Assembly: GCF_030435755.1 (NCBI RefSeq)
Contig: NC_080843.1
Location: 68,798,485-68,862,484, forward strand
Length of the DNA stretch: 64,000 bases
Reading direction: 5' to 3'
Source of the DNA: Ochotona princeps
Taxonomy: Eukaryota
Notes under the pieces: model-generated
The model's input: only the letters and a program-made list of their open reading frames with translations
The model's database searches: none
Told to the model about the DNA's origin: nothing
Position numbers and translations under genes: made by a program
Shown: piece after piece, positions 1 to 62,349 of the stretch
How positions within the stretch are numbered: the stretch's first letter is position 1
Layout: the number at the start of each line of letters is the position of its first letter

Positions 1-107
1 GTCCCACCTGTGGGCTGAAGAAGGCTCACAGAATCATTTGATCTGGCTCTGCCAAATCAACCACAGATGGGACTTGATGCGAAATAAATCTAGAGCAAGT
101 GAACTCT

Positions 108-2853: not shown

Positions 2854-2978
2854 CTGGGCTACAAAGTCTATTATTCTCCCCTTGACATGAACATTCTCAA
2901 GGGGAATCAAATTCCCAGAGATGTCCTGAAGCCCAGCTTGGGTACTGCTGGAGGCTTTGGCGTCTGGCAACTGGTAAT
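2854..2978 (-). CDS. PARP4: PARP4 exon: (D)YQLPDAKASSSTQAGLQDISGNLIPLENVHVKGRIIDFVAQ
   Basis: Acceptor tttccaacctgcag|ATT. Donor CCCAG|GTAAGC. Matches human YQLPDAKTSSSTKAGLQDASGNLVPLEDVHIKGRIIDTVAQ. The next (VIT-domain) exon was not found in 1-2853. Confidence 0.8.
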
Positions 2979-3087
2979 CTGCAGGTTGGAAACATTAGTG
3001 TTAGCTTGCATTTTTACTGTAGCTTGTTCATTTATTTAGTTATTTTCATTCTATTTGCAAGACAAAGAGACAGACAAGAATCTTCCA

Positions 3088-3421
3088 GGCCCAGCACAAT
3101 AGCATAGCCCTTAAAGTCCTCGCCTTGAATGCACCAGGATCTCATATGGGTGCGAGAGTTCTAATCCTGACAGCCCCACCTCCCATCCAGCTCCCTCTTG
3201 TGACCTGGGAAAGCAGTGGAGGATGGCCCAAAGCTTTGGGACCCTGCACCCGCGCGGGAGACCAGGAAGAAGTTCCTGTCTCCTGGCTTCGGATTGGCTC
3301 AGCTCTAGCCGTTGCGGCCACTTGGGGAGTGAACCATTGGACGGAAGATCTTCCTCTCTGTCTCTCCTCTTTTCTGTATATCTGCCTATCCAATAAAAAT
3401 AAATAAATCTTTAAAAAAAAA
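3088..3421 (+). mobile_element. SINE (C-repeat), full length with an A-tail
   Basis: …cttaaagtcctcgccttgaatgcaccaggatctcatatgggtgcgag…aataaataaatctttaaaaaaaaaa. Confidence 0.9.
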
Positions 3422-3439
3422 ACCCAGAAACAGAATCTC

Positions 3440-3680
3440 CATTCTACTTGCTCATTCCCCAAATGGCTGCAATGGCTGATTCTGGGTCAGGTGGGATCCA
3501 GGAGCCAGAAGAACTCAGTGGGTACCAGAAACCTGCTTACTTGAGCTATTGCCATTGCTTTCCTGGGTCTGCATTAACTGGAGGCTGAAGCAGAGCTGGG
3601 TACTGAACCCAAGCACTCTGATACAGATGCAGGTGTCCCCAACGGCATCTTAACTGCTAGGCCAAATGCCAGCCCCCTCA
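3440..3680 (-). mobile_element. SINE (C-repeat), partial
   Basis: …ttccccaaatggctgcaatggctg…catcttaactgctaggccaaatgccagccccc. Confidence 0.75.
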
Positions 3681-4493
3681 CTACACAAAACATAAATCCT
3701 CGCCTGCGGGAAGCAAAGCTCAGAAAGTTTCTGTGACTTGTTCATGGTGGCACCAAGTGGTAGGGTATATCTGCAAGCCTCAACTTCTTGGTTCTAAAGC
3801 TGTGTCTGCTGTCTGTTCTGTCTTCCCTGCTTGGTTTGGATGTGATTTGATTGTGTTCCCCCGAAGGTCAAGTGTGGGAGCTTGTTTGCTGGTGTGCTGA
3901 TGCTGGGAGGTCATGCAGGCTGTTAAGGTGGTACCTGGTGAGTGATCTCTGGGGCACTGCCCTTGGAAAGCACCAAGGAGGCCCTTGTGGCAGTCCTGTG
4001 CTCACGCCAGAGCAGAGTGTTAAAGGAGTGAACCCAGCCCTGACTCACTTTGACTTCCTGTTTTGAGGTGTGGTCTCTTGCTCAAGCTTCTACCATGAAG
4101 CTCTTAGCCTATCAACAAGAAAAAACAATGTAGCTACCCAAATTTCAGGCTCTACATCTGTGAGTCAGATAAGCTTCCTTTTTTTATAAAGTTAGCCTAC
4201 CTCAGGAATTTCATTATAGTAACCAAAAGTGGCCTAATGTACACCCTCCTATTATACTTTTTGCACTTGGACAGCTTACAGTGGCTCCATTGGCTTTAAG
4301 ATTGACTGTCTCTGAGAACAAGTTCAACTTAAGTGAGCTAACAAAGTAACAAGGAATTTTAAGATCACTTAACCTTTCTCACATTCTGGCTGTCCCATGT
4401 CCAAAACTAAAAATAAAATGAAATATTCGTGTATGAGGTCATATATTTTCTTGAAAAATTGTTTCATGAAAAAATGTAGCAGAACTGTCTTAC

Positions 4494-4653
4494 CTTCAAT
4501 TTTTGAGCTGTCTGAGAACACAGGAGGTCTGTATTGCTCTAGTTCAATATTGTTAGGAGGCCTAAAGCTCTTTATTTGATCCTCAGGCAGGCAAAATTTA
4601 ATAATATATTTCATTTTAACCTGATTAGTTTTATATACCACAAATTCGTCATC
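4494..4653 (-). CDS. PARP4: PARP4 exon: DDEFVVYKTNQVKMKYIIKFCLPEDQIKSFRPPNNIELEQYRPPVFSDSSKIE(D)
   Basis: ORF 4369..4641(-). Acceptor tcctgctag|GAT. Donor TTGAAG|GTAAGA. Matches human DDEFVVYKTNQVKMKYIIKFSMPGDQIKDFHPSDHTELEEYRPEFSNFSKVED. Confidence 0.85.
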
Positions 4654-4864
4654 CTAGCAGGAAGAGAAAGTAAGAGTTAAAGATTACAATCACAACCCTT
4701 CGTCAGCAGATGTTCTCAAAAGAGCAGGAGGTCAAGTTTGCTAATTCAGATGACACACATACAATTAATTACATAAATGTAATTATACTGAATATAACAG
4801 GAGCAAAACCTGATGCTGTTCTTTGGGCATTTGGGACTTTATCTGTTGCTTCATATAAAAATAC

Positions 4865-5048
4865 CTCGAAATCTGTGTTGAGCGAGGCTGTTCGTGCTAC
4901 TCCGTGCACACTGTGGTAGCCTTCTGGGGCTTCGGTTAAAGAGAAGTCCTTCTGGTTAAATTCTATACACTCTCCGAGGGCCACGTCACAAACAAGCAGG
5001 AACCTGGTACCCTCGGTCTCACCTGGATGTGCGTATTTAATAGTTGCA
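4865..5048 (-). CDS. PARP4: PARP4 exon: (S)ATIKYAHPGETEGTRFLLVCDVALGECIEFNQKDFSLTEAPEGYHSVHGVARTASLNTDFE
   Basis: ORF 4769..5074(-). Acceptor cacgtgcag|TGC. Donor TTCGAG|GTATTT. Matches human TSIKYSHPGETDGTRLLLICDVALGKCMDLHEKDFSLTEAPPGYDSVHGVSQTASVTTDFE. Confidence 0.85.
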
Positions 5049-5187
5049 CTGCACGTGGAAGGAAATAAGCACATATTTCAACTTACAGCTACAGGTAAGT
5101 AGCATTTTATCACAGATTGATCACCCTTTTCTTGAAGCCCCAAATCTGAAGTGTTATGAAGTCCAAAACAGATTAAGCACTGCGTGG

Positions 5188-5580
5188 CACCAAGATAGAA
5201 CATGGTACCCAGGCCTCCTGTGATGGGTCACAGTTACAACACAGGTGCAGGGGTCATTGTTGCAACACAGTGGGTTAAGTTTCTAGCTGCGATGCCAGCA
5301 TTCCGTGTCAGTGCTAGTTGGAGATCTGGCAGCTCTACTATGATCCAGCTCCCTGCTAATGTGCTTGGGAAATCTTGGAAGAAGGGAAATTTCTCGGACA
5401 CCTGCCTCCACGTGGGAGATTGTGGTGAAGCTCCTGGTTTTGGCCTGAGCCCACCTGGGCCTTTCCTGCCATTTGGAGAGTTGGCCAGCAGATGGAAGAT
5501 CTCACTTCCTCTCTTTGTCCATAACTCTGAGTTTCAAATCAGTAAGATAAACTTTTAAAAACAAACACAAAACAAAAAAA
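5188..5580 (+). mobile_element. SINE (C-repeat, diverged)
   Basis: …cagctccctgctaatgtgcttgggaaatcttggaagaaggg…ggaagatctcacttcctctctttgtcc… A-rich tail. Confidence 0.75.
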
Positions 5581-6002
5581 GCCACAGGTGTGCTAATCAT
5601 TGTATACAATGACCTATAGGCTGTGTGCATAAGGTGTAGATGAAGCATAAAACATTTTGTGTTTAGGTTTTGGTCTAATCCCCAAGATATCCCATTGCAT
5701 ATATGTCAATATTTCAAAAATTGTGAAAACTTAAAAATTAAAACACTTCTGGCCCCATGAATTTAGGGTTGTATTACTGAAAAATAACCTTCCCAGATAC
5801 CTTCCCAGAAAGTTATCCCAAAGTTCATGGTTATTGAGATAGTTGGAAAGATTCAGCTTTGAACTTTATTCTGAGCTTGTTTACTTTAAAGTTCAGATAG
5901 TAAACATATATATGGTCCTTGGTTGTGTCAGGCTGTGTTCAAAACACTTGTTCTCAGAGAAACAACTATAGTGTTCCTGCCAATTCTGTTTAGATTTCTG
6001 GG

Positions 6003-6215
6003 TTTTTTTTTTCAAGATTCATTTTTATTTTTTTGAAAGGCAGACTTACAAAGAGGGATAGAGGGGTTGAGTTTTCATCTGCTGGAACATTCTCCAGAGG
6101 CATTCGTGGCCAGGGCTGTGCCAGAGCCCAGGCTCTCAAAGACCCTGGCTGCAGAGACTGAGCCCACCCCAGTCCTGGGTGAGCTGCATAACCTGGGGCA
6201 AGGCTCTCTGAGTTC
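6003..6215 (-). mobile_element. SINE fragment (C-repeat-like 3' half)
   Basis: tttgaaaggcagacttacaaagagggatagaggggttgagttttcatctgctgg…. Confidence 0.5.
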
Positions 6216-6478
6216 CCACCGGTAATAGAGCAAAGTTAGGGTTTTCCTTAAGCATTATTGTAGAGAACTTCAGACAAAACTCACATGAAAGCTCTTAGGA
6301 GCATGCATCACTAACAGGACTTCAAATGTAATTTCCCTTAACATTTAAGACACTGGGAAAACTGGCGGCGTTTAGTGGTTTGTTGCTTGGATGAGAAACT
6401 CCCTCATTGGGAAAAGACAGGCAAGAAGAGCAAGTCGCAGCATCGGTTCCTCGGGGACGAAGGAAGGAGCCGACTCAC

Positions 6479-6574
6479 CTGAGCGAATCACTGAAGTATA
6501 TTCCACTTCCAAGATTCCCAATGTCCGTTCTGTGCACACCACGATCTTCAACCACTTTGGGTAAAAGCAAACCC
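6479..6574 (-). CDS. PARP4: PARP4 exon: (R)GLLLPKVVEDRGVHRTDIGNLGSGIYFSDSL(S)
   Basis: Acceptor ctttctag|GGG. Donor CTCAG|GTGAGT. Matches human GLLLPKVVEDRGVQRTDVGNLGSGIYFSDSLS. Confidence 0.8.
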
Positions 6575-6689
6575 CTAGAAAGAAAAGGGTATTACAATGC
6601 CTGAGCAGAAAAAGACGGGGTGGTGGGGGGGAACCTCTTACTACAGCCTTGTAATACTAGAAACAGTTGCTATTTAAAAACCAATTCAG

Positions 6690-6835
6690 GGCCCGGAGTG
6701 ATGGCGTAGTGGTTAAAGTCCTTTCCTTGCACGCGTCCGGACCCCATATGGGTGCCAGTTCTAATCCCAGTGGCTCTGCTTCTCATCTTTTGAGTCCATC
6801 AACAGCATTTTTTGTTTGCTTGTTCTTTTTTGAAA
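6690..6835 (+). mobile_element. SINE (C-repeat) 5' portion
   Basis: ggcccggagtgatggcgtagtggttaaagtcctttccttgcacgcgtccggaccccatatgggtgccagttctaatcccag. Confidence 0.75.
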
Positions 6836-7075
6836 GTTTATTTATTTGAAAGACAGAGTGACACAGAGAGAGGTAGACAGAGATCTTTCATCTGCTGATT
6901 CGCTCCTCAGACGCCTCCAGGGGCCAGGCTGGGCTGAGCTGAAGCCAGCTCCTCCATGGGGAGTAGGAATGCAGGTGCTAGAACCGTCATCCGCTGCCTC
7001 CATCAGCAGGCAGCTGGCTAGCTGGGCTCAAACACGCACCCCGGTACGGGTTTAAGCATCTTACTTGAGTGACAG
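6836..7075 (-). mobile_element. SINE fragment (C-repeat-like)
   Basis: tttatttgaaagacagagtgacacagagagaggtagacagagatctttcatctgctgattcgctcc…. Confidence 0.55.
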
Positions 7076-7112
7076 CAGTTTAAGTTTTTTTCCAGGTGGA
7101 TCTTGTATGTTT

Positions 7113-7432
7113 TTTCATTTTATTTTACTGAAAGTCAGATATACAGAGAGGAGGAGAGACAGAGAGGAAGATCTTCCATCCGATGATTCACTCCCCAAGC
7201 GACCGCAATGGCTGGTGCCGAGCTGATCTGAAGCCAGGAGCCAGGAACTTCTTCCGGTTCTCCCATGCAGGTGCAGGGTCCCAAGGCTTTGGGCCGTCCT
7301 TGACTGCTTTCCCAGGCCATAAGCAGGGAGCTGGATGGGAAGTGGGGCTGCCGGGATTAGAACCAGTGCCCGTATGGGATCCCAAGGCTTTCAAGGTGAG
7401 GACTTTAACCACTAGACCACCACGCCGGGCCT
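7113..7432 (-). mobile_element. SINE (C-repeat), full length
   Basis: …cagatatacagagaggaggagagacagagaggaagatcttccatccgatgattcactccccaag…accacgccgggcc. Confidence 0.9.
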
Positions 7433-7856
7433 GTATGTTTCTTTTAAAGTACTTACAGGATCAAATTTAATCTTATTCCCTCCTTCACTCATAAGCTTAG
7501 TTTTAGCATTATGTTAAGTCAACAGAAAACTAGAGTTATGTTTTGATTTGGAAACTCACATATAGGTACTCTAATTTCTAGAACTATCTCTTTCAATACT
7601 GGACTGTTCTCAGATTAGTTACACATGAAGAGCCTTGCAATATACAATCACTTGTCGTCATATGATACAGTCTTCCAGGGGTAATTCATACCCAGACAAC
7701 ACAACTTTGAAAAGCAACAAGTACATAATTTAAAGGACATATTTATTGATGAGGTGTTTAATTTTCTCTAGAGGTCGGCTGGCTGAGAAGACCCATTCCA
7801 TATAGAAAAACTAGGGAAAACAGTGAAATGTTTCACCCCCAGGAGGCTGCTCGTAC

Positions 7857-7994
7857 CGGGACAGGATTCCTATGAGGTTGCAGACAGGAGATCCGTGTAA
7901 CAGGAGCCTCACGTTGCCCAGTTGGCTTAGAAATTCTGTGGTTTCATTCACTCTGCCGACTCGAAACATCTGCAAGATGTTCACACGATGTTTA
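7857..7994 (-). CDS. PARP4: PARP4 exon: (G)KHRVNILQMFRVGRVNETTEFLSQLGNVRLLLHGSPVCNLIGILS(R)
   Basis: Acceptor ttcttacag|TAA. Donor CCCG|GTACGA. Matches human SKSPVDVLQIFRVGRVNETTEFLSKLGNVRPLLHGSPVQNIVGILCR. Phase 2→2. Confidence 0.8.
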
Positions 7995-8149
7995 CTGTAA
8001 GAAGCAGAAGGAAAACCTTGAGATTACATATTTAGAAGCAAGACACACACAAAATCATGATTATCAAGATAAATGCCTGCTGTCAGAAAACTGAACTTAC
8101 AACATAGCCTGGAAAGGGTTTCCTATTGAAAACATTGCATGTGTTGATT

Positions 8150-8410
8150 TGAGGGACAGAAGGAGAGAACTCCCAAACACTGGTCCAGGCCCTAAATGCC
8201 CGGATGCTCGAGGATGGACTACAACCAGGAACCAGGAACTCCATCTGGGTCTCTCCATGGGTTGGCAAGAACCCAGACACTTGGTTCATCTTCTCTCCCC
8301 TGGGCTACACACTATGGAGAATCTGGAATCAGGCGCCGGAGCTGGAAGGAACCCCAGGTACCCCAGTGTGGGAAGCAGGCATCCAGGCATCTTAACTGCT
8401 AGGCCAAATG
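8150..8410 (-). mobile_element. SINE (C-repeat), partial
   Basis: …catcttaactgctaggccaaatgtctg at the end. The body is diverged. Confidence 0.65.
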
Positions 8411-8607
8411 TCTGTTTTGAAAAACACCAACTTACTGAGCCTTACAGGAAAAGAAAACACTTAAATTAAGTACAACATTTTATATATTAATCCCAAATCT
8501 TATCAAATACATAACATACAGTGTTACAGTTCCACTCACATATAAGAATGAAGTGGGGGAGTCCTTGTTTTGGCAGCATATATACTTAAAAAAAAGAAAA
8601 ACACCCA

Positions 8608-9000
8608 AATGGGAGACTGGCATTGTGGCACGGTTGGCGAAGCTGTGCCACTTGCAATGCAGGCATCCCATGAAGTGCCCGTTTGTGTCCTGTCTGCTTG
8701 CACTTCAGATCCATCTCCCTGACAAAGGTGTGGGAAAAGCAGTAGAAGATGCGAAGACAGCACAGTGCTTGGGCCTGGATGAAGCCCTGGCTCTGCCTTC
8801 AGCCCCACCCAGTCCTGTGGCCACCTGGGGAGCAGACCAGAAAGATCTGGCTCTTTCCCCCTCCCTCCAACTCCATCCCTCCTTCTCTCTGTCTCTCAGC
8901 TCTGGTCCTTGCAGTCACCTGGGGTGTGAACCAGCGGATGGAACATCTTTCCTGATAAATCTGCCTGGCTGATAAAAATAAACCAATCTTTAAAAAAAAA
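8608..9000 (+). mobile_element. SINE (C-repeat, diverged) with an A-tail, ending 36 bp from a PARP4 exon
   Basis: gggagactggcattgtggcacggttggcgaagctgtgccac…ataaaaataaaccaatctttaaaaaaaaa. Confidence 0.75.
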
Positions 9001-9035
9001 TAAAGAAGGTTCTGAGACGTTTCCTTTTGGCTTAC

Positions 9036-9196
9036 CCGTGATTGTTCTTTAGTATCTCCTTTTTAACGCTAAGAAACTCTTCAGTATGCTGTTCAACGTG
9101 CTCAATTTTGCACCTCAAAGCTCGGTATTTGGCAAGAGATGGTGGGTCGGGTTTGGAAAAATTAGTTTCACAGACATTAACCATGTCTCTTATTAG
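9036..9196 (-). CDS. PARP4: PARP4 exon: LIRDMVNVCETNFSKPDPPSLAKYRALRCKIEHVEQHTEEFLSVKKEILKNNH(G)
   Basis: ORF 9032..9232(-). Acceptor ccacccacag|CTA. Donor CACGG|GTAAGC. Matches human LIRDMVNVCETNLSKPNPPSLAKYRALRCKIEHVEQNTEEFLRVRKEVLQNHH. Confidence 0.85.
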
Positions 9197-9467
9197 CTGT
9201 GGGTGGAAATGGTACAGAGACATCAGACTCAATACATACCAAAAGATTAATATTTATATTCCATTGATATTTTCTCAAAAAGAATGGGAAAGTCATTTTT
9301 TCCCCAAAGCTTTACATCAGTATTTGCTGTTTGTAGTGTATTAAAAGTTAACAAAGTTCGCTATCTGATTGCACAGTGTACAATGCTAATAATATAAACA
9401 CGAACATAACATATTATTGTTAACAAGATATAGGTACATTATTCATTTTAGTTTTTTTTTAAAAAGA

Positions 9468-9607
9468 TTTATTTTATTTTTATTACAAAGTCAGATATAC
9501 TGAGAGGAGGAGAGATAGAGAGGAAGTGGAGCTGCCAGGATTAGAACCAGCGGCCATATGGGATCAAGGCGAGGACCTTAGCCACCAGGCCACACCGCCG
9601 AGCCCTC
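9468..9607 (-). mobile_element. SINE (C-repeat) with an internal deletion
   Basis: aaaagatttattttatttttattacaaagtcagatatactgagaggagg…gccaccaggccacaccgccgagccc. Confidence 0.75.
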
Positions 9608-9624
9608 ATTTTAGTTTTAAATGT

Positions 9625-9760
9625 TTGAAAGGCAGAGTGATAGAGAAGGAGAGATAGGGAAATGTCCTCCACCTGCTGCTTCAGTTGCTCGGGCCGGGCA
9701 GAAGCTGGGAAAACCATCGGGGTTCCTGTAGGCCACGATATTAGTCACCACGGCATCTAT
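9625..9760 (-). mobile_element. SINE fragment
   Basis: tttgaaaggcagagtgatagagaaggagagatagggaaatgtcctccacctgctgcttc. Confidence 0.5.
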
Positions 9761-11077
9761 TTGTCCTCACCACAACACCAGAGTAGCTTATTATCCTCAT
9801 TGTTCAAAAAACAGTCAAAAAGTCCATGGAAAATACACTGAAGGGGAAACTATTCACAGATTTCAGAAACCATTTTGTACCAAAATAAAATTTACCTTTT
9901 AAATCCATTTTCCGCTTTTCGAAGAACTATCATACAGAGAAGTGAGAATTTGAGAATTGAAATCAGTTCTTTCAGATCCGACTGTGAGGAGGGACAGTGA
10001 ATAAGTGGGATTCAGGATTAGCAGACTACTGGTCTATTTCAGCTTATTGGAAAAAGTGCTGTGTTGTGCACTCCGGGTGTGCGGGCCTGAGCCACACAGC
10101 CAACCACACACATGATGGGGAGCTATGAGACCCCAACAGGACATGAGACCTCCCTGTGGTCCAGAGGCTGTGGTTACAGTGACGTCACAGGACGAGGTGT
10201 TGGAGATGCTGGTGTAAACACGCCTTCAGCACCGCCAGCACACGTCACGTCAGCAGCACACCACACTGGATGATGATCGTAAGTGCCTGTTACTGGCTTA
10301 TTTATTTATTATACCATATTTTTGTTATTATGTTGGAGTGTACTCCTGCAAGCTCAGGTGTCCTGTGAACGTCTGCCCGTTGTGCCAGCAGGACCTCATC
10401 CATCTTGTGTTAACCGTGTGTCCTGAGGGACTGACCTATGTCACCTAGGGCTGTGCAAGCATGCGAACAAGAATACAGGCTAACACCTCGAACCTGGAAA
10501 TCCTAACTCTAAAGTGGACCGAAGCACTGACATTCCCTACCTGGTCTCATATGATGATTCCCACTCAAGAAGCAGGTACATAACAATAAAGAAAAAAAGA
10601 AGTGGAAAGAGAAAAAAAAAGAACCAACAAAAGGAAAAAAAAAAAAAAAACCAAAGAAATAAATTATCTTCTGGCTATGCACATAAGTTTTATAGGAAAC
10701 AAATGAATTTTCTGTCTTTACTTGGATCCAATTCTCATATCTCACTACATTTATGCAAATACAAGTATGCATTTACATATATGCAAACCCTGAAAAAAAT
10801 CTGAAATGTAAATATACATCTGGTTCTAAGCATTATAGATAAGGGATTCTCAACCTGTACATATTTATATAATTATTTGCAAAAATAAACTCTGCAAAGG
10901 CAACCAAAAAAAGCTCAATAACAAAATGGTTACGTGTTATGGAAAGGAGAATGGTTGCAGGGGACAGAGTGGATTAGAGATTTCTCTGAGCATATCTTTT
11001 TTAACATCATTTTGACTTCTGAATCATATAGATATTTTAATCTATTCAAAATACAATTTCAAACTAAAAGTGCTTGG

Positions 11078-11388
11078 AAGGGTTGGCATTGTAGTGCGGC
11101 AGGTTAGATGTAATGCCGATACCCTATAATAAGCGTGCCAGTTTTGATCCTGGCTTCTTGTTAATGTGCCTCGGAAAGCAATTAAGGATGGCCCAGGGGC
11201 TTGGGTCCTTGCCACCCATGTGGCGATCAGGATGGAGATACAGGCTTCTCATTTCAGCCTGGCCCAGTTTGGCTGTTATAGCCATTTGGGGATCAGTGGA
11301 TCTATCTTTTTCCATCTTTATCTCTGTGTGTCACCCTGCTTTTCGAATAAGTAAATAGATATTTAAAAAAAAAAAAAAGTAATCTGGG
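11078..11388 (+). mobile_element. SINE (C-repeat, diverged) with an A-tail
   Basis: gggttggcattgtagtgcggcaggttagatg…ccatttggggatcagtggatc…aaaaaaaaaaaaaa. Confidence 0.75.
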
Positions 11389-11595
11389 AGACCAGCACCA
11401 TGGTGTAGTAGGCTAATCTTCTATCTGCAGTGCTGGCAAACCACATGGGTGCTGGTTCAAATCTCAGTGGCTCCACTTCCAATCCAGCTCAGCTACAGCT
11501 ATTGTGGCCATTTGGGGAGTAAAGTAGCAGGTGGAAGATCTGTTTCTCCTTCTCTCCTTAACTCAACCCTTCAAATAACAAAATAAAAAGTACGT
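11389..11595 (+). mobile_element. SINE (C-repeat), partial, directly abutting the previous element
   Basis: gggagaccagcaccatggtgtagtaggctaatc…ggccatttggggagtaaagtagcaggtggaagatctg. Confidence 0.7.
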
Positions 11596-48261: not shown

Positions 48262-49333
48262 AATCTTTACATAGTTGATTAGGGTGCAAAGGGTCAAGGG
48301 CTAGAGGAAAGTGGGTAAGACCATTGTTATCACATTCTTTTTTTTTTTTCCCTTTTTGTATCCTGCGGAGAGATAAGGGGAAAAAGCCACACCCAGCCTC
48401 CCAACCATCCCAGGGTCCCCCTCCGAGGGTCCTGCTCAAGTTCAACACTTCTGAATTGCTGCCCATCTCACCAGTCTAAGCATGATGCAATCTCTCCAGA
48501 ATTCCCTGGCTGACATAGTCCATCTTAGAGTCTCCGTTGCCCAGATTTTCACTGCCAACCCTTGGCTGGGATAGTTGATCCATTTATTCTGTCTTCCAGC
48601 CTCTGTTCTGGTACCAGGTGTCCTTTGCAGGTTCTAATATACCATCATACCCTCCATGTACAATTGGCTATGCTGTCCACTGTTTCATTTAAACCACTGA
48701 AGAAGCCCAGCTCTGGACACAAGCATTCCACAATCAGGCCATGGACCCTGCAATTTTCTGCATGGTTTAAAGTTCTGAGTCCACTGGTTCAATTGGGGGA
48801 TCCCCAAAGAAACCTCAATGAGGCGATCCCAGACCTGATTCTTGTGTGTGTTTACCAGTACAGGGACTGGCACAACGTGTTGCCCCGATCAGCTTACATG
48901 CACACTGGTGATTACAGTTGCTGGGTCAGTTCATCTCCATCCCTATCCTCTATGCAAACTAACAGTGTTGCAGCCCAGCCCAGCCCAGCCCAGCCCAGCC
49001 CAGTTCTACCCACCACACACTCGGCCACATAAACCAGTGGGAGCTGTAGCCTAGTCAGAGTGACCCGCAATAACCCCCACCAGGCACACCCCTGCCCTGG
49101 TTCCTATGCTTGCCAACATGTACCGCAGACTGGTCCAGTCTGAGCTATATCCCATCCAGCTCTCATACATGTGAATAGACCTTGAAACCTAGTTTAACCC
49201 AACTAGCCCCAATATCCAGCCCCACTATTCAGCCACTATACCTGCTGGCAGGTGCCACTCTGTCTAGCCCCGTCTGCCCTAGCCCTGGTTCTTGTGCTCA
49301 CCAGTCGGAGTGGCAACCTGAGAGGGAGGTGCC
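48262..49333 (+). repeat. Same unclassified repeat family, copy 4. The 3' end abuts the P2RX5 retrocopy. It contains a (CAGCC)6 run at 48971-49003.
   Basis: tacatagttgattagggtgcaaagggtcaagg… through …ggagtggcaacctgagagggaggtgcc is colinear with 29545-30720 and 39272-40390. Confidence 0.75.
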
Positions 49334-49379
49334 AGTGGCGAGGCTTTTAAAAAATGAATGGAGTTGGGAGCCGTGGCTC

Positions 49380-50350
49380 CCGGTTCCCCTAGGGAGGGCA
49401 GGCGGGCCGCGACTCCCCGTGCCGCACATTAGGGCCCCGGTACGCAGGCCTGGCTGGGGCGGCTCCATGGACTGCAGGGCGCTCTGCCTGTCCCTCCTGG
49501 ACTACAAAACCGAGAAGTACGTGGTGGCCAAGAACAGGAAGGTGGGCTTGCTGTACAGGCTGCTGCAGCTCTGCGTCCTGCTGTACTTGCTCATATGGGT
49601 GTTCCTGGTCAAGAAGGGCTACCAGGATTGGACACCTTGCTGCAGACTGCTGTGGTCACCAAAGTCAAGGGCGTGGTCTACACCAATACCTCGGAGCTCG
49701 GGGTGCGGCTCTGGGATGCCACGGACTATGTCATACCGCCCCAGGGAGAAAATGTCTTCTTCATCATCACCAACCTGATTGTGACCCCCCACCAGCGGCA
49801 GGGCACCTGTGCTGAGGAGTGAAGACTGGCCGCTGCCTGCGAGCAGGGAATTCAACCCAGGGCACCTGTGAGATCTTCACCTGGTGTCCAGTGGAGACCA
49901 AGTCCGTGCCCAGGAAGCCACTGCTGGGGGATGCTGAAGACTTCACTGTTTATATAAAGAACTTCACCCGCTTCCCCAGATTCAACTTCTCCAAGACGAG
50001 CGTGGACACGGACAAGGCGCTGCTGAAATCCTGTCACTTTGGCCCCAACAACCTCTAGTGCCCCATCTTCCATGTGTGCTCTGTGCCCCGCTGGGCGGGG
50101 AGCACCTGTGAGGACATAGCCCTGGAGGGCGGTGTGATCAGCATTCACATTGATTGGAACCATGCTCTGAATGCAACCCTCACTACTCTTTCAGCCGTCT
50201 GGACCACAGCTTTACAAAGTCCATATCCTCAGGGTACAACTTCAGGTTGTAAACTGGGAAGGGGAAGCTCTGCCCCACAGTGGCCTCAGCGACCCAGCTC
50301 CCTGCCTGCTGGACAGCTTTAACCTAAGTGCTAATGAGGTCAAGGATCAA
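49380..50350 (+). pseudogene. P2RX5: P2RX5 (P2X purinoceptor 5) processed pseudogene. Intronless, with a frameshift near 49606. An exon-3-sized block of ~26 codons is missing at 49809/49822. A further block is missing near 50250. The 3' end is decayed.
   Basis: ORF 49182..49778 ([34 protein letters not shown]…[11 protein letters not shown]), ORF 49595..49822 ([63 protein letters not shown]) and ORF 49819..50058 (KTGRCL…GTCEIFTWCP…CHFGP) match human P2X5 in order with no introns. It lies in CENPJ intron 1. Confidence 0.8.
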
Positions 50351-52094: not shown

Positions 52095-52445
52095 GGTGTC
52101 TTTTTTTTTTTTTTTTTTTAAAGATTTTTTTCATTATTATTGGAAAGCCAGATATACAGAGAGGAGGAGAGACAGAGAGGAAGATCTTCCATCCGATATT
52201 TCACTCCCCAAGTGAGCTGCAACGGGCCGGTGCGCGCCAATCCGATGCCGGGAACCAGGAACCTCTACCCGGTCTCCCACGCGGGTGCAGGGTCCCAAAG
52301 CTTTGGGTCATCCTCGACTGCTTTCCCAGGCCACAAGCAGGGAGCTGGATGGGAAGTGGAGCTGCGGGGATTAGAACCGGCGCTCATATGGGATCCCGGT
52401 GCGTTTAAGGTGAGGACTTTAGCCGCTAGGCCACGCCGCCGGGCC
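52095..52445 (-). mobile_element. SINE (C-repeat), near-consensus
   Basis: Poly-T at 52095-52117 …ggaaagccagatatacagagaggaggagagacagagaggaagatcttccatccgatatttcactccccaag…gccacgccgccgggccc. Confidence 0.95.
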
Positions 52446-53374
52446 CAAGTACTGGGTGTCTTCACCAGCAGGCACCTGCCTGCCCTCCTGAATTCATCTT
52501 GGTGTGTGTTATTGTCCCGCACCTGTTTCCCCCTCAGTCTTCCTCATGTCAGTAAATGACAGTTCTGTTTTTCCAGTGGGTCAGCAGGGAAATGTTGGAG
52601 AATGAAGTGTGGGAGGTGAGAGAGGAGGGACATTTGGTGTTACAGGCTGATCATAAGAGATTCAAAATTGCTTTTAGGAACAGCGTGGAAGAATACCATA
52701 TCAGAACCGTACACTATCACAGAAATAATTGGATGTTGGAGTTTTTATACTCTAAGAGTATTAAGAGCGGGGGACTTCTGTGGTTTCTGGTGTAGGATTA
52801 CTTACCTGGATTAATTCTGCAGAAGTCTAGGTAGGGAGTCGTCGTGACGCTGGGTCCCAGAGGACCGTGGCACTGATGGGATTCTCCTGCAGGTGAGCTG
52901 GTCCTGCTCCGCCCTTGGGAGCTGCAGAGCCCAGGCCGTCTCCTGCAGCCAGCCTTTAGTGTCACGGGCAAGGACTTCTGTCCACCTGGTCTTGCTTGCA
53001 GCCCTCCTCCCTGACGCTGCTGTTGTCCCCCGAGCGCTAGTTACTGTTCTACGTACTGTATCATTTTTGTGTTTTCCCCATTGCTAGATTTTAGCGCCTA
53101 TAACAATATCTGGCACGGAGTAAGAACCCCACCGATGGTTGTTGAGTAATATCTGACGTGGTACAGGGAGGCGCTTATCTTCCCCTGACGTCTGACTGAA
53201 GAGCACTCACTCCTCTTGATGGAGTTCCTCGGAAGATTTTGAAGTCTGAGAACCCAGACACAGTAGCTGTCCTGTGGCAGGAGCCGGTGTAATTTTATTG
53301 TTGAGTGTTGAATGAACACTGAACACAGACAGCTTCTTACAGTGCTATATTTAGTTTTCAAGCCAATCTTTTTT

Positions 53375-54300: not shown

Positions 54301-54379
54301 AGAAAGCCTAATTAAAAAAATTAGGGAGAAAGTGAGTACTTTCAGTGGCTTTTTTTTTTGATAGTGGCTTTTTTAAGAA

Positions 54380-54640
54380 AAATGTTTATTCATTTCAATA
54401 GCAAAGAGATCTTCTGTGCACTGGTTTACTCCCCCAAATCCTTGCAGCAGCCCGGGCTAAGCCAGGGGAAGCCATGTGACTCTTCCACTTGGATAGCGGG
54501 GCCCCAAGCACTCTTCAGGCGCATCATCCTGGACTGGAAGCAGATCAGCCGGTACTCAAGCTGGTACTCCGACGTGGGAAGCTGGACTTGCATGTGGGGC
54601 TCATCGTGCTGTGACTCGTGGCCAGTGGTGGCTTTTTGAA
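54380..54640 (-). mobile_element. SINE fragment (diverged)
   Basis: …agcaaagagatcttctgtgcactggtttactcccccaaatccttgcagcagcccggg…. Confidence 0.45.
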
Positions 54641-54764
54641 AATTCAGCAACTTTTAAGGTGTTTTAGGTCAACTGATTTAGCACTTGCATAATATCATTA
54701 TACAGTTGGATGATTAGGTGTGGAGGAATTAAACATTTTTGAAGGAGGAATTTTTTTTCTTTTT

Positions 54765-55105
54765 CAAGATTTATTCTCTTTTTGAAAAAGATTTATTTTT
54801 ATTGGAAAGTCAGATATTCAGAGAGGAGGAGAGACAGAGGAAAATCTTCTCTCCGATGATTCACCCTCAAATTGGCCGCAACAGCTGGTGCTGCGCCAAT
54901 CCGAAGCCAGGACTCAGGAGCCTCTTCCAGGTCTCCCACGCGGGTGCAGGGTCCCAAGACTTTGGGCCGTCCTCAACTGTTTTCCCAGGCCACAAGCAGG
55001 GAGCTGGATGGGGAGTGGGGCCTCCAGGATTAGAATCAGGGTCCATATGGGATCCCGGTGTGCTTGCAAGGTGAGGACTTCAGCCGCTAGGCTACCGCGC
55101 CAGGC
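54765..55105 (-). mobile_element. SINE (C-repeat), ending ~260 bp upstream of the CENPJ ATG exon
   Basis: …ggaaagtcagatattcagagaggaggagagacagaggaaaatcttctctccgatgattcaccc…cagccgctaggctaccgcgccaggccc. Confidence 0.9.
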
Positions 55106-55365
55106 CCATAGAAGGAATTTAAAATTTTTGATCTGCTGTCTTTGGACATCTTGAACGTCAAAATAAACCCTTAATGCTTAGTGCTTGGTTGATTTGCTGA
55201 TTCAAGGCTTTTCTATATGAAATACTGATGAAATTTTCACACGAGATTGAAGTTTGTGTTAGTTTTGGGTAGAATATGTAGTAGTTGTAACAGTTTTTGT
55301 GTCTGTCTTTGTTTCTAGGTGTTGGAAATCGACCTCTCTAGCTTTTACATTATTTATTGTAATAG

Positions 55366-55821
55366 CATCACCGCACTGAAATGTTCCTGACACCGGCCTC
55401 CGAGTTAAGCAGTGGGCAGAACTTCCTAAGCCAGTGGATGACCAATCCTTCCCGGGCTGGGGTCATATTAAACCGTGGCTTTCCTGTGTTGGAAGCTGAT
55501 GAAGAGAAGCGAACAAGTGAAGACATCTGTGCCAGTTTTCCTGTTAAAGCCACGCGACTCTCAGACAGCTTCAGCTTTGTCGGCGAAGGAGAGCCCCTTT
55601 ACGGAGAGCAGCAGCTGGACTCGAGCGGCACTCGCAGACCGCAGGCAGACACGCCCGAAGCCCGCACCGTCTTCCCCTCAATCAAGAAGGGACCGCAAGG
55701 GGTGGTTTGTCAGGATGTCTGCAGATCCCAGGAGGATGGCAAAAGTGACTTTATTTCAGCCCTTGGGAGTGAATTCAGAGAAGTGGCTTATAAAGACCCA
55801 CTTTTGAAAAAGCTGGAACAG
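55366..55821 (+). CDS. CENPJ: CENPJ ATG exon (ATG at 55381): [44 protein letters not shown]…[12 protein letters not shown]
   Basis: ORF 55381..55830. The N-terminus matches my recollection of human CENPJ/CPAP ([45 protein letters not shown]…). Acceptor ttattgtaatag|C. Donor GAACAG|GTGCAG, ending in phase 0. Confidence 0.75.
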
Positions 55822-56330
55822 GTGCAGTAGAACCTGGCTTTGTGTGGATTTGTGTCACTGGGGGTTTCCGTTTGAGGCGGAGATCATCTCTGCAACCTCT
55901 TGGTGGTCTTTCCGGTTTACTCTGCAGTTCTCCAAGTACTAGTCTTTGCCTTTGATCTAACGTGAAGCATTAAAATGTGTTTCATGTGTGAGAGAGGCAT
56001 GCATCCTAAACTGAAAATGAATTCATGGCTTTAAGTTGCTACCTCATTTGGGAAGAACTAAAGAGTCAATTGATCAGTTATTAAAGAAAAAGTGATGATA
56101 CCTTGATACCTGTTGTATTTGAGGAATCAAAAGATTCAAATGGCTTTGAACGTATTTTTTAGTTGGTACTGATTTCTGGGATAAGCAAGTGGGATTTTTA
56201 GAGTCCTGAAGACAGATTTAGTTCCTGAAGGATTGGTTTCTGGATCTCTGTAACGGGGAGGCTGTGTGTGGGCTGGGGGTCTGTGAGGTGACGCATGGCT
56301 GGTGTAACAAGTTAATTGTGTGCTGAGCAG

Positions 56331-56454
56331 CTCAAGGAGGTGCAGCAGAAGAAGCAGGAGCAGCTGAAGAAGCAGCAGCTGGAGCAGCTGCAGCGACTGG
56401 TGGAGGAGCAGGAGAAGCTGCTCAGCATGGTGCCGGGGCCCCGCACGCTGCCTG
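56331..56454 (+). CDS. CENPJ: CENPJ exon: [41 protein letters not shown](A)
   Basis: Acceptor tgctgagcag|CTC. Donor CCTG|GTACGT. Matches human [42 protein letters not shown]. The frame continues from the previous exon. Confidence 0.75.
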
Positions 56455-57904
56455 GTACGTGTCCACACACAGCCTTCCGCAGCACCCCGAGACGCAGTGG
56501 CAGGTGCTTCTGGTCTTTTATTGCTTCACACGTTGTTTCTACCATTCCTCCAACCTTTAGGGAGCGGGCAGGTATGCAGCAAGGGGCTAGGGACTCAGTC
56601 TGAGCCTCCTGTGTGTGACAGGGAGCCAGCTGCTCGGCTCATCACCTGCTGTCTCGCGGGATGCGCATTCGCAGGAAGCTGGAATTGGAAGCAGAACTGG
56701 GACATAACCTGGGCTGTTTCCAAGTGGGTTGGAGGCATCGCTGAGCTGCATCTTAACGGCTCTGCTAAAGGCCTGTCCCAACGCTGCTTTTTTTTAACAG
56801 ACACAGCTCACTGGCTCAAGAAAGTACCTATTCTGTCCAGAGCGTGCACTTGGCATTGAGAACACAGCAGAGACATGACACCAGTCAATACATGTGCACA
56901 GTGTGGCTGGATGGGAGCCAGAGGGGAGCAGTGAAGAGAAACTGAAGGAAGGGAGGTTTTAGCAAACTTGGATGCTTTGAGAATACAGGGCAGATGGTGA
57001 ATATATGCTTAGAGAATATAGAGAATGTGTGAATCTGAAAATCCAGAATGAAATGCTCCAAACATTTGACACAAAGATGCTGAAAGAGAAGTTTGCTGTT
57101 TTGCTTTTGCAACGTTTTTTATAAAGGTAATTTTGACCTGGTAGGTGCCCGGAAAAGGTCATTGAGACCTCCATAGGTTTGTAGAATGACCTTTGAGCAC
57201 AGCTGCTTTCGGACATTTTTTTTTTTGCCAAAGACCTCTTCAAGCTGAAGCGAGATGTATGTTTTCCACCTATTTGTGTTTTAAAATTTTATTTGTTTAA
57301 AAGGGATGGACAGATACAGGGGTGCGAAGAAGCCAGCAGTTGAGTGTGGGTCTTGAGCCATTATCTTCTGCCTTCCATGTGGGGGCGTTAGCGGGAGGGT
57401 GGGGTGATGAGTGGGGCGGGACTCCAGCCCTGGACGCCGGCATCCTGAGCACTGGCTTCATCCCCTATTGAGGATGTTTAAATGGGGCTGCGTGCTTGCT
57501 GCTGTTGTGCAGGGAAGGTTATGGCTGACACTCAGAATGGCCCTAGCTCATCTTCTACTTTTGTTTGTGTGCCAGAGATTAGGTGTCTAGTGCTGGGGAC
57601 AGTGGCAGTTTTGACAGTACTTCCCAATATGTCTTCACATCCAGATTTAGTGATTTCTGGAGAGAGAGGGGGCTGGCAACTGGGTTTCAGTGGCTGCCAC
57701 AGCAGGCGGGGTGGCTAGCGTGCCATCTTTCTGTTAAGGAGTTTAGAAACATCGAACAGGGGACCTCTGTTGGGTTCTTTCTAAAGCAGAGACATAGGAA
57801 ACAAATCAGACGAAAAAACAAAACAAACAAAAAAACCCGGGATGTTTAGAGGCCAGAGCAAGTCACCTGCGGTGCGATGTGAGAACTAGATTTTAAGAGC
57901 GGTT

Positions 57905-58058
57905 GGGGGCTTGGCAGTGTGGCCTAGTGGCTAAGGTCCTTGCCTTGATCCCATATGGCCGCTGGTTCTAATCCTGGCAGCTCCACTTCCTCTCTGTCTC
58001 TCCTCCGCTCAGTATATCTGACTTTGTAATAAAAATAAAATAAATCTTAAAAAAAAAG
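57905..58058 (+). mobile_element. SINE (C-repeat) with a large internal deletion
   Basis: gggggcttggcagtgtggcctagtggctaaggtccttgccttgatcccatatggccgctggttctaatcctggcagctccacttcc|tctctgtctctcctccgctcagtatatctgactttgtaataaaaataaaataaatcttaaaaaaaaa. Confidence 0.85.
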
Positions 58059-58409
58059 AGCGGTTGGAAGGGGAGTGTACTTTTCCAGGCACATGCTATT
58101 GAGATAACTGTGCCTGGTGCCACGTGGAGGGCTGTAGGTTGCCAGCTGCTGTGAAGCCTGCTGTGGCAGCTGCAGCTCTGTCCTCCACGTTCTGGTTGCG
58201 TGGGAAGTATCCTGTAAGTGTGCTCTCACTTGAAATTATGTGAAGTTCACCATGGAACCTGAAAATTTCATGATTTGGTGAAGCCTCTTTTCCTACTATG
58301 AAAAATATACTTGGAGAAGTCTGTGCAGGGTGGGAGTGGGCATGGGGGTGGAATGCTAGGCAGATGTTGTAGTAAAATGTTAACTTTTTTGGTGTTCTTT
58401 AATTGTAAG

Positions 58410-58691
58410 CTTTACTGCCTGATGAGCAGAACCAGAAGTGCGGTTCGCCAGGACATCCAGTGGCCAGAGAGAAGACCGTGCCCTTTTTACCATCTTACCT
58501 CTTCTCGAACCAAGCCCAGGACAACGCTCACGCTTGCAGCATTTTACCTGATGACCACATCAGCTCGTGTACCCAGCAGGATGCCTCCGCCTCCCGAAGC
58601 GCTTCTCCGGGTTGGTTCTATGAGGCGCAGGGTCCAGACGCGCTCGTGAAAAGCGACGCAGGGGAGGAAGGGCAGAACCGTGCGGCAGGTG
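58410..58691 (+). CDS. CENPJ: CENPJ exon: (A)LLPDEQNQKCGSPGHPVAREKTVPFLPSYLFSNQAQDNAHACSILPDDHISSCTQQDASASRSASPGWFYEAQGPDALVKSDAGEEGQNRAAG(G)
   Basis: This is the only acceptor (ctttaattgtaag|CT) that restores phase 1→ORF after the in-frame stop at 58406. Donor GTG|GTGAGT. It resembles human LSLLPDDQSQKHRSPG…, a weaker recollection. The donor could instead be 3 bp upstream (CAG|GTGGTG) without changing the phase. Confidence 0.55.
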
Positions 58692-59149
58692 GTGAGTCCC
58701 GGTGCTGAACTCACAGGGTTACCAGGTGGCCTCAGATAGGAGAAGCCCTTTGTGACATTTTTCCCCCATCTTGTAATCGTGATATGTCACGTGCCTCATC
58801 GCTGCTGAGTTGGAATTGAGTTCAAAGCTATGCTAGGATTTGTCTTGCTAGAAACACCGTGGGCTCAGGCGCCTTGGGATGCCCGTATCTCATACCGGGT
58901 TGCCAGTTTGCTTGCTGGCTGCTCTGTCTGCAGTACGGCTTCCTGCTAAAGCACCCGTGATGGCACGTCTTCTGTGCTGGACACTACAAAGCTCTTCCTC
59001 GCTCCTGGCTTCCCGCTGGCCCAGTCCAACCCTGGGTATTAAAACGCTGAGCAGTGAACTTGCAGATTAAAGATCTCTGTTTCTGTTTTCTTCTTCCCTT
59101 TCTCTGTCACTACCTTTCAAATAAATAGATAACATTTCTCTTTTTAAGG

Positions 59150-59325
59150 GAAGCAGTAGTCTACACGTGCCCCTCCTGGCACCACGTGGGAGACCCGGAA
59201 GAAGCCCTGCTCCGGCCGTTGTGGCCATGTGGAGAGTGAACCAGCAAGCTGCAAAGCTCTCCCTCCGTCCTCTCCTTCTCTCTCTAAACCTACCTTCCAA
59301 ATAAAATAAATACATCTTAAAAAAA
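59150..59325 (+). mobile_element. SINE fragment (C-repeat 3' half)
   Basis: …cacgtgggagacccggaagaagccctgctccggccgttgtggccatgtggagagtgaaccagcaag…aaataaaataaatacatcttaaaaaaa. Confidence 0.7.
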
Positions 59326-59617
59326 TGAAACCCCATATAAGCCAAAAAAACCCCAAAAAGACTCTTTAAAACTTTCTTACTCTAGAAAAGCCTTTACTTT
59401 TCTCCCCCATGGCGTTATCTTTTGAAGAATATCAAGTGTCTTTATTGAGTTTTATGGTTTTTATGTATTAAAGAAATGCTTTAGCATTCTAAAATTGTTG
59501 GCATACATGATTATTAATTACATTTATAGTTGTAGCTTAGTAAGTTGTGAAGTTCCTATGCTTCAAGCCTTTCATCTGCCTTTGTTGGACTGCGTTGTTT
59601 CTTAATTTGTATCTTAG

Positions 59618-59717
59618 GAGAAGGTGTTTTATCAATGACGGAACAGATTCTGGGACAGAGTGACATGACTTTTAAGAAAATCGATGATTCCTCCGAAGTC
59701 TTGAATATCGAAGAAAG
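59618..59717 (+). CDS. CENPJ: CENPJ exon: (G)EGVLSMTEQILGQSDMTFKKIDDSSEVLNIEE(R)
   Basis: Acceptor tgtatcttag|GAG. Donor GAAAG|GTATAAGT. Open in the required phase (1→2). No protein-level confirmation from memory. Confidence 0.5.
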
Positions 59718-60462
59718 GTATAAGTGTTGAAAGGAGTAAGAGACGGAACAATTCAATGTCATGGTTCATGTTGTTATTGAGCTCTTTGGAAGAGTTATAC
59801 TCTTGTTTCCAATTGAAGTGCTTTTGAGTGTAGGTTGAAGATAACCCTGTCACATGTGGTAACAGGAGGAGGTTGGGAGGTACTAGTTAAAGAAGCTTTG
59901 GCATTGTTCTGGAGGAACTGAGCCAAGGTTTTTGCACTTCACAGACAGCTGGGTAAGTGTGACCTCTCAAGTAGCAAACTTCTGTTTAATGGGGTCTCAC
60001 ATGTGGTGTCTCTTACAGATTATAATTGTACAATCAAAGAGCTGAAAATGGTGAAGGGGATTTTATCTTTTAGATAGATTATTATATATTTGAAATATTT
60101 TCATGTATATTACGGTATGGGCAAAATGACTTGCGGCTCTGTTTACATGAATGATCTTTCTTACTTTGAAAGAGACCGAATCAATGGGCTGTTTTTGAAA
60201 GAAGTTTTAAAGTTATACGGTGAATGTGTTACTTCAGAAGTGAATCTGTAGTCCCTGGATGGAATCCACACGGGCCCAGTCATGTACAGAAGGTTGAATA
60301 CCTTTGTGTTTGTTAGGGGTGGTGGTGATTATTGCTTTTATTGGATTCTCAAAGGGGGGGGATCTTCAACTTCTATCGTTGTTGAAGTTGTGTCATCAGG
60401 CGTGTTAACTAAAATAGTCACAGACTGGGGTGTGTGTGCTAAATAACTTTGTTTTTGACTAG

Positions 60463-60565
60463 GCCTATTAAAGCTGTTCTAAGCGAAAGGAAACAGACAT
60501 TTGAAGACTACGTGGAAGAACAAATTCGGCTAGAAGAGCAAGAACGGGAGCAGAAGCAGATGAGG
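60463..60565 (+). CDS. CENPJ: CENPJ exon: (R)[34 protein letters not shown]
   Basis: Acceptor gtttttgactag|GCC. It must end in phase 0 to join the large exon, which implies a non-consensus donor AGG|GTTAGC. A coiled-coil-like composition. Confidence 0.5.
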
Positions 60566-60695
60566 GTTAGCAACCGTACCATTTCGAATAAATTATTCTG
60601 AGACTTTAGAGATTTGTTTATGGTTTGCTGTAAAAATGGCTTGGAGAGGACTTGCCTATACTACAATTATTTCATTGATTGTCCTTTTCTTTTAG

Positions 60696-62349
60696 GAAGC
60701 GGAAGGACCAGGGCTAATCAAAGCAAAGCCCAAACAACCATTCTTAAAACGAGGAGAAGGTCTAGCTAGATTTTCTAATGCTAAATCTAAGGTTCAGAGA
60801 GGGAAAGAAAGCAGACCAGTGTCTGGCCAGAGCGCTGCGGAAGACCAGCCCGTGTTTCAAATGGAGAGACCGCAGTTCCAGCGGAAAACCGCTGTTAGGA
60901 ATAAAGACCTGGGTGCCGAGAGCCCTGCTGTCAAAAGGCTCAGTAAAGTTCGAAGCAGGAGTGCGGCTGTCACACTCAGTCAGAAGCTACACGTGCCCAA
61001 GAGTAATAATAGAAAAAGTCTCTCTCCGTCGGGATTGAAAATACAGGCAGGGAAGAAATGGGACGGGCAGCCGAGAGACCACAGCAGATTGGACAGAAAG
61101 GTGGAGCTGCCTAACAGCAAGGAAGATGTACGTGAGTGTGCAGACCCTGCGGATCCTGGCTGCAGAGTGCGGGCTAAGGCACCAGGACAAGACAGACGGC
61201 CCCTCTCACCAGGGCAGCTCGCCTCTGCGGCTGCCAGAGCACCCATGAGCGAGACTGTGAAAGCGTTGGAATCTTCTCTGGACGTTTCTCTTCAGAAGAA
61301 AATGGAGACTTGGGAACGAGAGAAGGAAAAGGAAAATTTGGAACTAGATGAGTTTTTGTTTCTGGAGCAAGCTGCTGACGAAATATCATTTTCTAGTAAT
61401 TCCTCATTCGTGCTGAAGATCTTAGCAAGGGATCAACAGGCGTGCCAAGGTCACCGGCTGTCTTCCACTCCCATGAAGGCTGTGCAGCCAGAGAGGGCAC
61501 ATCCACGGGGCGCTGATGGTCAGGGTGACCACAGGGAGGGTCCCAGCCATGCTGCCCGTGAAACCAGAAGTGAGTGTGACGTGGCACCCCACCCCCGGGG
61601 CCCAGCGTCCGCACCTGAGGGCCCGAGGGAATGGTCGTGTAACATCCGGAGGAAAGCTTGCCAGAAAAACGACTTGAGCAGTTCTGAAAACCGAGCCCCA
61701 TGGGAAGCAAGCGATGAGGTCGATGTCACCGACAGTGATGATGGCGCGGACTCCGAGGAGCAGCTTGATGTGACCGTGAGACCGTTGCCTGAGGAGGCGG
61801 GCAGGAGTTTGAGCAGCATGGAGGAGAGCCCACAAGTCTGCGATGGCATGGGGCCTTCCAAGGACGCTCAGACTCAACAGGAGAAGAGAGATGTGGAACT
61901 GGATTTGTCTGCTAAAGATTGTAGCACTGATGGCTGCATCATGGCAGAGAGCATGAGAAACCTGGGCTCTGAGACTTCCCGAAGACCCTCATCTCCAAAT
62001 ATGAGTACAATTGACTTTGATGATGAAAGAACCTGGACTGACCTCGAAGAGAATTTGTGTCAACACGACGCTGTTCTTGAGGATGAAGCTGTTTATGGGA
62101 CCCCCCAGAAACACTCCCTGAATAGAAGTGATGTGTTTGTCCTGGACAAAACATTAAAAAGAAAGGTAGCACCGGTCAAGAGGGGAGAAGACTCGAGCAA
62201 GGCAGGCAGGAGCCGAAGCCCTCCTCCTGCGTCGGAGCTCATGATGAAATTCTTCCCGTCTTTGAAGCCAAGACCAAGACCAAGACCAAAAGCAGATTCG
62301 CCTTTGGACAATGGACCCAAGTTAAACACGAGTCCAGACCAGCTACCTG
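60696..62349 (+). CDS. CENPJ: CENPJ giant internal exon (1654 nt): [32 protein letters not shown]…[29 protein letters not shown](G)
   Basis: ORF 60819..62366 extends upstream in frame to acceptor ttttcttttag|GAA at 60696. Donor CTG|GTGAGT at 62349/62350. Disordered, S/P/E-rich composition. Its size and position are consistent with the large exon 7 of CENPJ. Confidence 0.7.

Follow-up and report, generated by a model that had tools for sequence, protein, structure and literature searches.

Classical bidirectional-promoter pairs consist of divergent genes whose transcription starts lie less than 1 kb apart. In a 64,000-nucleotide stretch of Ochotona princeps DNA (NCBI RefSeq assembly GCF_030435755.1, contig NC_080843.1, positions 68,798,485 to 68,862,484; the whole stretch is called the window below), PARP4 and CENPJ resemble such pairs in their divergent orientation, their apparent CpG-island promoters and a long-conserved pairing, but they lie in separate islands with an estimated gap of ~9.7 kb. 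The closest counterparts in gene content are goat chr12 and the camel locus, which carry the same two genes in divergent orientation and without an intervening gene; RNF17 stands tail-to-tail to CENPJ, and MPHOSPH8 lies downstream of PARP4. The window departs from this layout only in spacing: ATG to ATG measures 26 kb, compared with 17 kb for camel and 5-7 kb for the birds. Human 13q12.12 holds the same genes, with the same exon structure as far as the human proteins align exon by exon. There, however, the RNF17 block is inverted relative to PARP4, and CENPJ is presumably no longer PARP4's neighbour.

The window is, with high confidence, correctly assembled, and presents PARP4 and CENPJ as divergent neighbours within an old amniote synteny block that was rearranged by an inversion on the human lineage. 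In the model proposed here, each gene would have its own CpG-island promoter and non-coding first exon, with no shared bidirectional promoter. The amniote block would read ATP12A-RNF17-CENPJ><PARP4-MPHOSPH8 in other placentals and CENPJ><PARP4 in birds, and the RNF17-containing block would later have been inverted relative to PARP4 on the human lineage, parting the two genes. Both genes and their positions are already annotated publicly, and synteny browsers show how human differs from other mammals; the practical yield here is a sound assembly with exact exon coordinates. As an outgroup state, the arrangement can help to date 13q12 inversions on the primate lineage, and it illustrates that a long-conserved gene adjacency can still break without obvious harm.

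Gene identities and exon structures

Human PARP4 and CENPJ sequences served as guides only, and each junction was refined on the window sequence. The resulting structures, listed in Table 1, bear out the first-pass annotation, which had described the 5' halves of PARP4 on the minus strand and CENPJ on the plus strand lying head-to-head: 14 and 6 coding exons, respectively, follow one another in order, can be spliced and are free of stops. It had set its outer limits at 2854 and 62349, and the outermost exons end at precisely these positions. The gene identities that it had proposed also hold when the exon translations are checked against databases, with PDB, Pfam and protein matches all returning PARP4 and CENPJ.

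All PARP4 coding-exon junctions carry AG acceptors and GT donors, and the 639-residue frame contains no stop. The 67-nt exon is required: joining the exon that ends at 26716 directly to the one that starts at 23476 breaks the frame. A GC donor at 26694, considered for exon 3, was rejected in favour of the GT donor at 26716 followed by this short exon. The product covers the BRCT domain, the WGR-like/regulatory region, the PARP catalytic domain and the linker towards VIT. The VIT, vWA and C-terminal MVP-interaction domains are encoded past residue 639, downstream of exon 15 and beyond the window, and no further PARP4 exon was found in window positions 1-2853.

A PDB search with the 639-residue product aligns residues 1-638 with the full-length PARP4 chain 11jf_P (1112 bits, E=0), a score far above what chance would give. 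The PARP4 catalytic chain 8sx1_A scores 593 bits versus ~89 bits for the best PARP1/PARP2 chains, so that the catalytic domain is nearer to PARP4 than to other PARPs. The BRCT domain of PARP4 is likewise present: PARP4 BRCT chains, such as 9dev_A, align to residues 1-98 at 171 bits, and Pfam places BRCT at residues 4-81 (47.9 bits) and PARP at residues 389-565 (133.4 bits). The best match in the protein database is lemur PARP4, with 77% identity over 100% of the query, and the named matches are PARP4 or PARP4-like save for a few generically labelled entries. Judged by its predicted product, the minus-strand gene is PARP4, which encodes the vault-associated ADP-ribosyltransferase.

The CENPJ exons form a 903-residue frame without a stop, and the exon 2 acceptor lies at 55318/55319. 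Pfam detects Tubulin-bind_CPAP (the PN2-3 region) at 76.5 bits over residues 314-380, so the tubulin-binding region that marks members of CENPJ/CPAP is present. A PDB search with the product returns CENPJ chains only (5itz_D, 160 bits). The best database match of the large exon, exon 7, reaches E=4e-161, and all of its named relatives are CENPJ. The C-terminal TCP10/G-box domain is encoded by exons past 62349, beyond the window, and was found at the orthologous CENPJ loci of camel and emu. From its translated exons, the plus-strand gene is CENPJ/CPAP, which encodes a centriole assembly protein. Both genes are predicted to be functional, expressed and single-copy.

It is extremely unlikely that the juxtaposition is an assembly artefact, or that one of the genes is a duplicate or pseudogene copy like primate PARP4P. 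Partial PARP4 copies do occur in apes, in the form of a bonobo 'PARP4-like' gene and a human PARP4/PARP4P inverted pair (PMC12632684). The window, however, contains all 14 PARP4 and 6 CENPJ coding exons in a complete, spliceable and uninterrupted series, and its order is collinear with the independent squirrel assembly and the same in camel and two birds.

Table 1. Coordinates of PARP4, CENPJ and associated features in the window, with the matching loci of other amniotes
Feature	Position	Strand	Details
Window			PARP4(-), CENPJ(+); ATG-to-ATG 26.3 kb
PARP4 exons 2-15	2854..29057	-	14 coding exons, residues 1-639, ATG 29056-29054
PARP4 coding exons, part 1	29056-28925, 26917-26716, 24241-24175, 23476-23401, 22286-22173	-	
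PARP4 coding exons, part 2	17863-17714, 16761-16624, 13552-13379, 9196-9036, 7994-7857	-	
PARP4 coding exons, part 3	6574-6479, 5048-4865, 4653-4494, 2978-2854	-	
PARP4 67-nt exon, EVKTDDLSLDDVMSQEDLVEPTE	24175..24241	-	aligns to lemur PARP4 residues 112-134
Putative PARP4 non-coding exon 1 and core promoter	34581..34780	-	conserved donor CAG/GTGCGT after 34581
CpG island, PARP4 5' end	33301..35000		GC 0.61, CpG observed/expected 0.73-0.85
Intergenic DNA	34801..44269		five C-repeat SINE (short interspersed element) copies 35969-38892, ~300-bp repeat 39905-40204, short conserved blocks
CpG island, CENPJ 5' end	44001..44900		GC 0.61, CpG observed/expected 0.94
Putative CENPJ promoter core and non-coding exon 1	44270..44598	+	squirrel conservation
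CENPJ exons 2-7	55319..62349	+	six coding exons, residues 1-903, ATG 55381
CENPJ coding exons, first three	55381-55821 (exon start 55319), 56331-56460, 58410-58691	+	
CENPJ coding exons, last three	59618-59717, 60463-60565, 60696-62349 (large exon)	+	
Grey squirrel, Sciurus carolinensis			CENPJ exons 2, 3 on opposite strand upstream of PARP4; ATG-to-ATG 28.6 kb
Wild Bactrian camel, Camelus ferus	scaffold KB016566.1		MPHOSPH8-like(-), PARP4(-), CENPJ(+), RNF17-like Tudor gene(-); ATG-to-ATG 17.3 kb
Emu			divergent CENPJ/PARP4 pair; ATG-to-ATG ~5.2 kb
Grebe			divergent CENPJ/PARP4 pair; ATG-to-ATG ~7.3 kb

Conservation of the pair in amniotes

Orthologous loci were located in annotated assemblies and the exon translations of the window were mapped onto them. 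No called gene lies between PARP4 and CENPJ in squirrel, camel, emu or grebe. The squirrel locus carries the CENPJ ATG exon at 5390->4941 (minus) and the PARP4 ATG exon at 33986 (plus), and is collinear with window positions 28.8-56.5 kb, a span that includes the PARP4 ATG exon, the CENPJ island and CENPJ exons 2-3. The camel order in Table 1 is read in increasing scaffold coordinates, and its MPHOSPH8-like gene is one with chromo and ankyrin domains. The mouse chr14 Cenpj-Parp4 neighbourhood is taken here to have the same layout. In goat, the positional gene order is ATP12A, RNF17, CENPJ, PARP4, MPHOSPH8, PSPC1 (PMC11874128); the published lists are read as positional because later-starting intervals lose first ATP12A and then RNF17.

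The same neighbours in the same orientation thus recur in independent lineages as a conserved amniote synteny block, CENPJ><PARP4. The first-pass view that the arrangement is ancestral stands: the head-to-head adjacency is found in the sequences of squirrel, camel, emu and grebe and in the published goat order. The extra spacing in the window consists mostly of lagomorph SINEs and other lineage-specific DNA.

Two of the comparison loci show peculiarities of their own. In the camel model downstream of PARP4 (locus 40578-46830), chromo and ankyrin domains are joined to the C-terminal MVP-interaction domain of PARP4; because this downstream model carries a PARP4 domain, camel PARP4 has evidently been split and mis-joined in annotation. 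In squirrel, three PARP4 exons (residues 449-597) occur twice, at 59169-62093 and 72318-75242, with identical scores and 13.1 kb apart; either the segment was recently duplicated in tandem, or the assembly contains it twice in error.

The human order

A case report gives hg38 breakpoints in PARP4 at chr13:24,468,640 and in RNF17 at chr13:24,812,394, ~340 kb apart, and its supplementary table lists the native hg38 orientations as minus for PARP4 and plus for RNF17 (PMC10551147). Human RNF17 is flipped relative to PARP4, because in camel the two genes share a strand and flank CENPJ, and in hg38 they lie on opposite strands. Of the earlier proposal that the human order is an inversion of the ATP12A-RNF17-CENPJ block, this comparison sustains the flip of RNF17 relative to PARP4. 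By parsimony the change occurred on the human lineage after the Glires split, because Glires and Laurasiatheria keep the old order. This date, like the mechanism considered below, is what we infer for the human inversion. Among the papers available to the search, none describes a PARP4/CENPJ inversion.

Several points weigh against this account. Two human positions are presumed: CENPJ on the minus strand, distal to RNF17, and ATP12A between PARP4 and RNF17. Both fit the conserved tail-to-tail pairing of RNF17 and CENPJ, as well as a 0.5-Mb hg18 interval that holds both ATP12A and PARP4 (PMC2966422). Human is the sole primate placed, as the titi monkey locus extends just 2.3 kb past PARP4 exon 1 and stops short of the neighbouring gene. 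The limits of the first exons and the activity of the promoters are predicted from CpG content and conservation only. Finally, the gene upstream of PARP4 in a killifish belongs to the UPF0220 family and is not CENPJ, and for this reason the adjacency is claimed for amniotes only. For a frog PARP4-like gene, nested in a larger PARP4 model, no CENPJ was found within 16 kb upstream. The killifish locus is also the sole support for the opposite polarity, with the human order ancestral and the adjacency a derived state of Glires and other lineages. That polarity is next to inconceivable given the same adjacency and orientation in Glires (the window and squirrel), Laurasiatheria (camel and goat) and two distant birds, since repeated independent origin is far less parsimonious than a single change on the human lineage.

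Beyond the single change on the human lineage, the flank of PARP4 points to another. PARP4 adjoins MPHOSPH8 in camel and goat, and human PARP4 is presumably not next to MPHOSPH8; from this difference, a second rearrangement is likely. Two inversions, both associated with segmental duplications, may have turned the amniote order into that of human 13q12: a ~0.4-Mb flip of ATP12A-RNF17-CENPJ and a ~5-Mb flip between PARP4 and PARP4P. We put the chances of this tentative scheme at somewhat less than even. The ~5-Mb flip would account for the lost MPHOSPH8 neighbour of human PARP4 and depends on the presumed human position of MPHOSPH8. Human PARP4 and its partial copy PARP4P form an inverted pair 5 Mb apart, with PARP4P at chr13:19.39 Mb (PMC12632684); this pair and the partial plus-strand copy in bonobo make an inversion between such copies a reasonable lead. 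If the two-inversion scheme is true, PARP4P would mark the old PARP4 site, and the head-to-head pairing, more than 300 million years old, would be dispensable for the regulation of either gene.

The bonobo 'PARP4-like' gene (CM054474.2:18.98-19.05 Mb), a plus-strand gene with a CCDC144C-like neighbour, lacks exons for residues 1-134 and 199-396. It was set aside as a witness of gene order, being a partial paralogue in duplicated DNA and uninformative in this respect; it probably corresponds to the human PARP4P copy.

Promoters and first exons

Two CpG islands, one at the 5' end of each gene, would mark two separate promoters, with the transcription starts predicted to lie within them. The PARP4 side shares three collinear conserved blocks with squirrel and titi monkey DNA (34760-34560, 34150-34004 and 33374-33198). 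The first of these contains a donor, TCTGGCAG/GTGCGT, that is invariant in the window, squirrel and titi monkey, as is the longer reading TCTGGCAG/GTGCGTGGG. The non-coding exon 1 of PARP4 most likely ends at this donor, at 34581, and would be spliced from there to 29057, where the acceptor sits a single base ahead of the ATG. The first-pass annotation had placed this exon near 33.5 kb and the two first exons ~11 kb apart; the conserved donor moves the exon end ~1 kb further out, and with PARP4 exon 1 ending at 34581 the gap between first exons would be ~9.7 kb.

On the CENPJ side, positions 44277-44494 are 77% identical over 223 bp to the collinear squirrel DNA. Candidate donors for exon 1 follow 44485 (GTAAGT) and 44598 (CAG/GTAAGG). 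A blastn search of the CENPJ CpG island against camel DNA returned no match. The promoter core also contains two ACTACA boxes, at 44341-44348 (AACTACAA, reverse strand) and 44398-44409 (ACTACAATTCCC), in opposite orientation and ~50 bp apart, both kept in squirrel. We take the ACTACA box to be a ZNF143-type motif, typical of ZNF143-bound CpG-island promoters.

These features bear on whether PARP4 and CENPJ might be driven by one true bidirectional promoter in a single CpG island. The genes are divergent, the layout is kept from birds to mammals, the emu ATG exons are only ~5 kb apart, and an ab initio squirrel model of PARP4 begins within the CENPJ CpG island. A shared promoter is nevertheless very unlikely. 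Bidirectional promoters have divergent starts within ~1 kb, usually in one CpG island, and neither feature is found here: the window has two distinct islands, at 33.3-35.0 kb and 44.0-44.9 kb, and ~9.7 kb separate the PARP4 exon-1 donor from the CENPJ promoter core, both of them conserved. Moreover, the squirrel model is clearly faulty, as it misses the genuine ATG exon and takes in unrelated ones, and the separation of PARP4 and CENPJ is tolerated in human cells.

The squirrel GenBank PARP4 protein starts with a spurious coding exon in the CENPJ CpG island (locus 10001-10492), an annotation error.

DNA between the genes

Nothing protein-coding lies between PARP4 and CENPJ. No Pfam family was found in 82 open reading frames of at least 45 residues from this interval, which were searched concatenated, nor in the long, GC-rich frames of the CpG islands. 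The open reading frames of 29.1-55.4 kb gave no translated match in the intergenic DNA of camel, titi monkey or emu. Across the whole window, an Rfam scan yielded no family at the gathering score and ARAGORN no tRNA.

The first-pass annotation had described this interval as holding only SINE- and repeat-rich DNA. The repeats are there, but short conserved non-coding blocks are present as well: four of them (42135-42291, 42458-42559, 38952-39063 and 43580-43628) are conserved and collinear with squirrel or camel. These blocks may be regulatory elements of PARP4 or CENPJ.

Repeats and pseudogenes

The composition of the window is mammalian. In a self-BLAST, a ~330-bp SINE turns up ~22 times with a length of 200 bp or more. 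The copies run in both orientations and share 72-92% identity with one full copy at 52102-52447; further examples lie at 3112-3422 and 28162-28503. The consensus of the 22 copies is 85% identical to what we take to be the rabbit C-repeat, a similarity that would suit a lagomorph source and is the one sequence feature that bears on the species. A non-SINE repeat of ~300 bp occurs in three copies (15393-15690, 39905-40204 and 48757-49142), and the region 40-42 kb has a strong C-over-G skew (-0.22).

Two introns harbour retrocopies. An intronless P2X receptor copy lies on the plus strand at 49461-50246, in CENPJ intron 1, and spans about residues 2-296. It carries frameshifts, an in-frame stop and an internal deletion, lacks the 3' third and shows no poly(A); its repaired translation scores 293 bits on Pfam P2X_receptor. 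This copy, presumably closest to P2RX5, is a processed pseudogene. An RPS25-like open reading frame on the plus strand at 12313-12783, within a PARP4 intron (Pfam Ribosomal_S25, 52.7 bits), is a ribosomal-protein retro-pseudogene. It is directly followed at 12815-12965 by (AAAG)x38, probably a decayed poly(A) tail.

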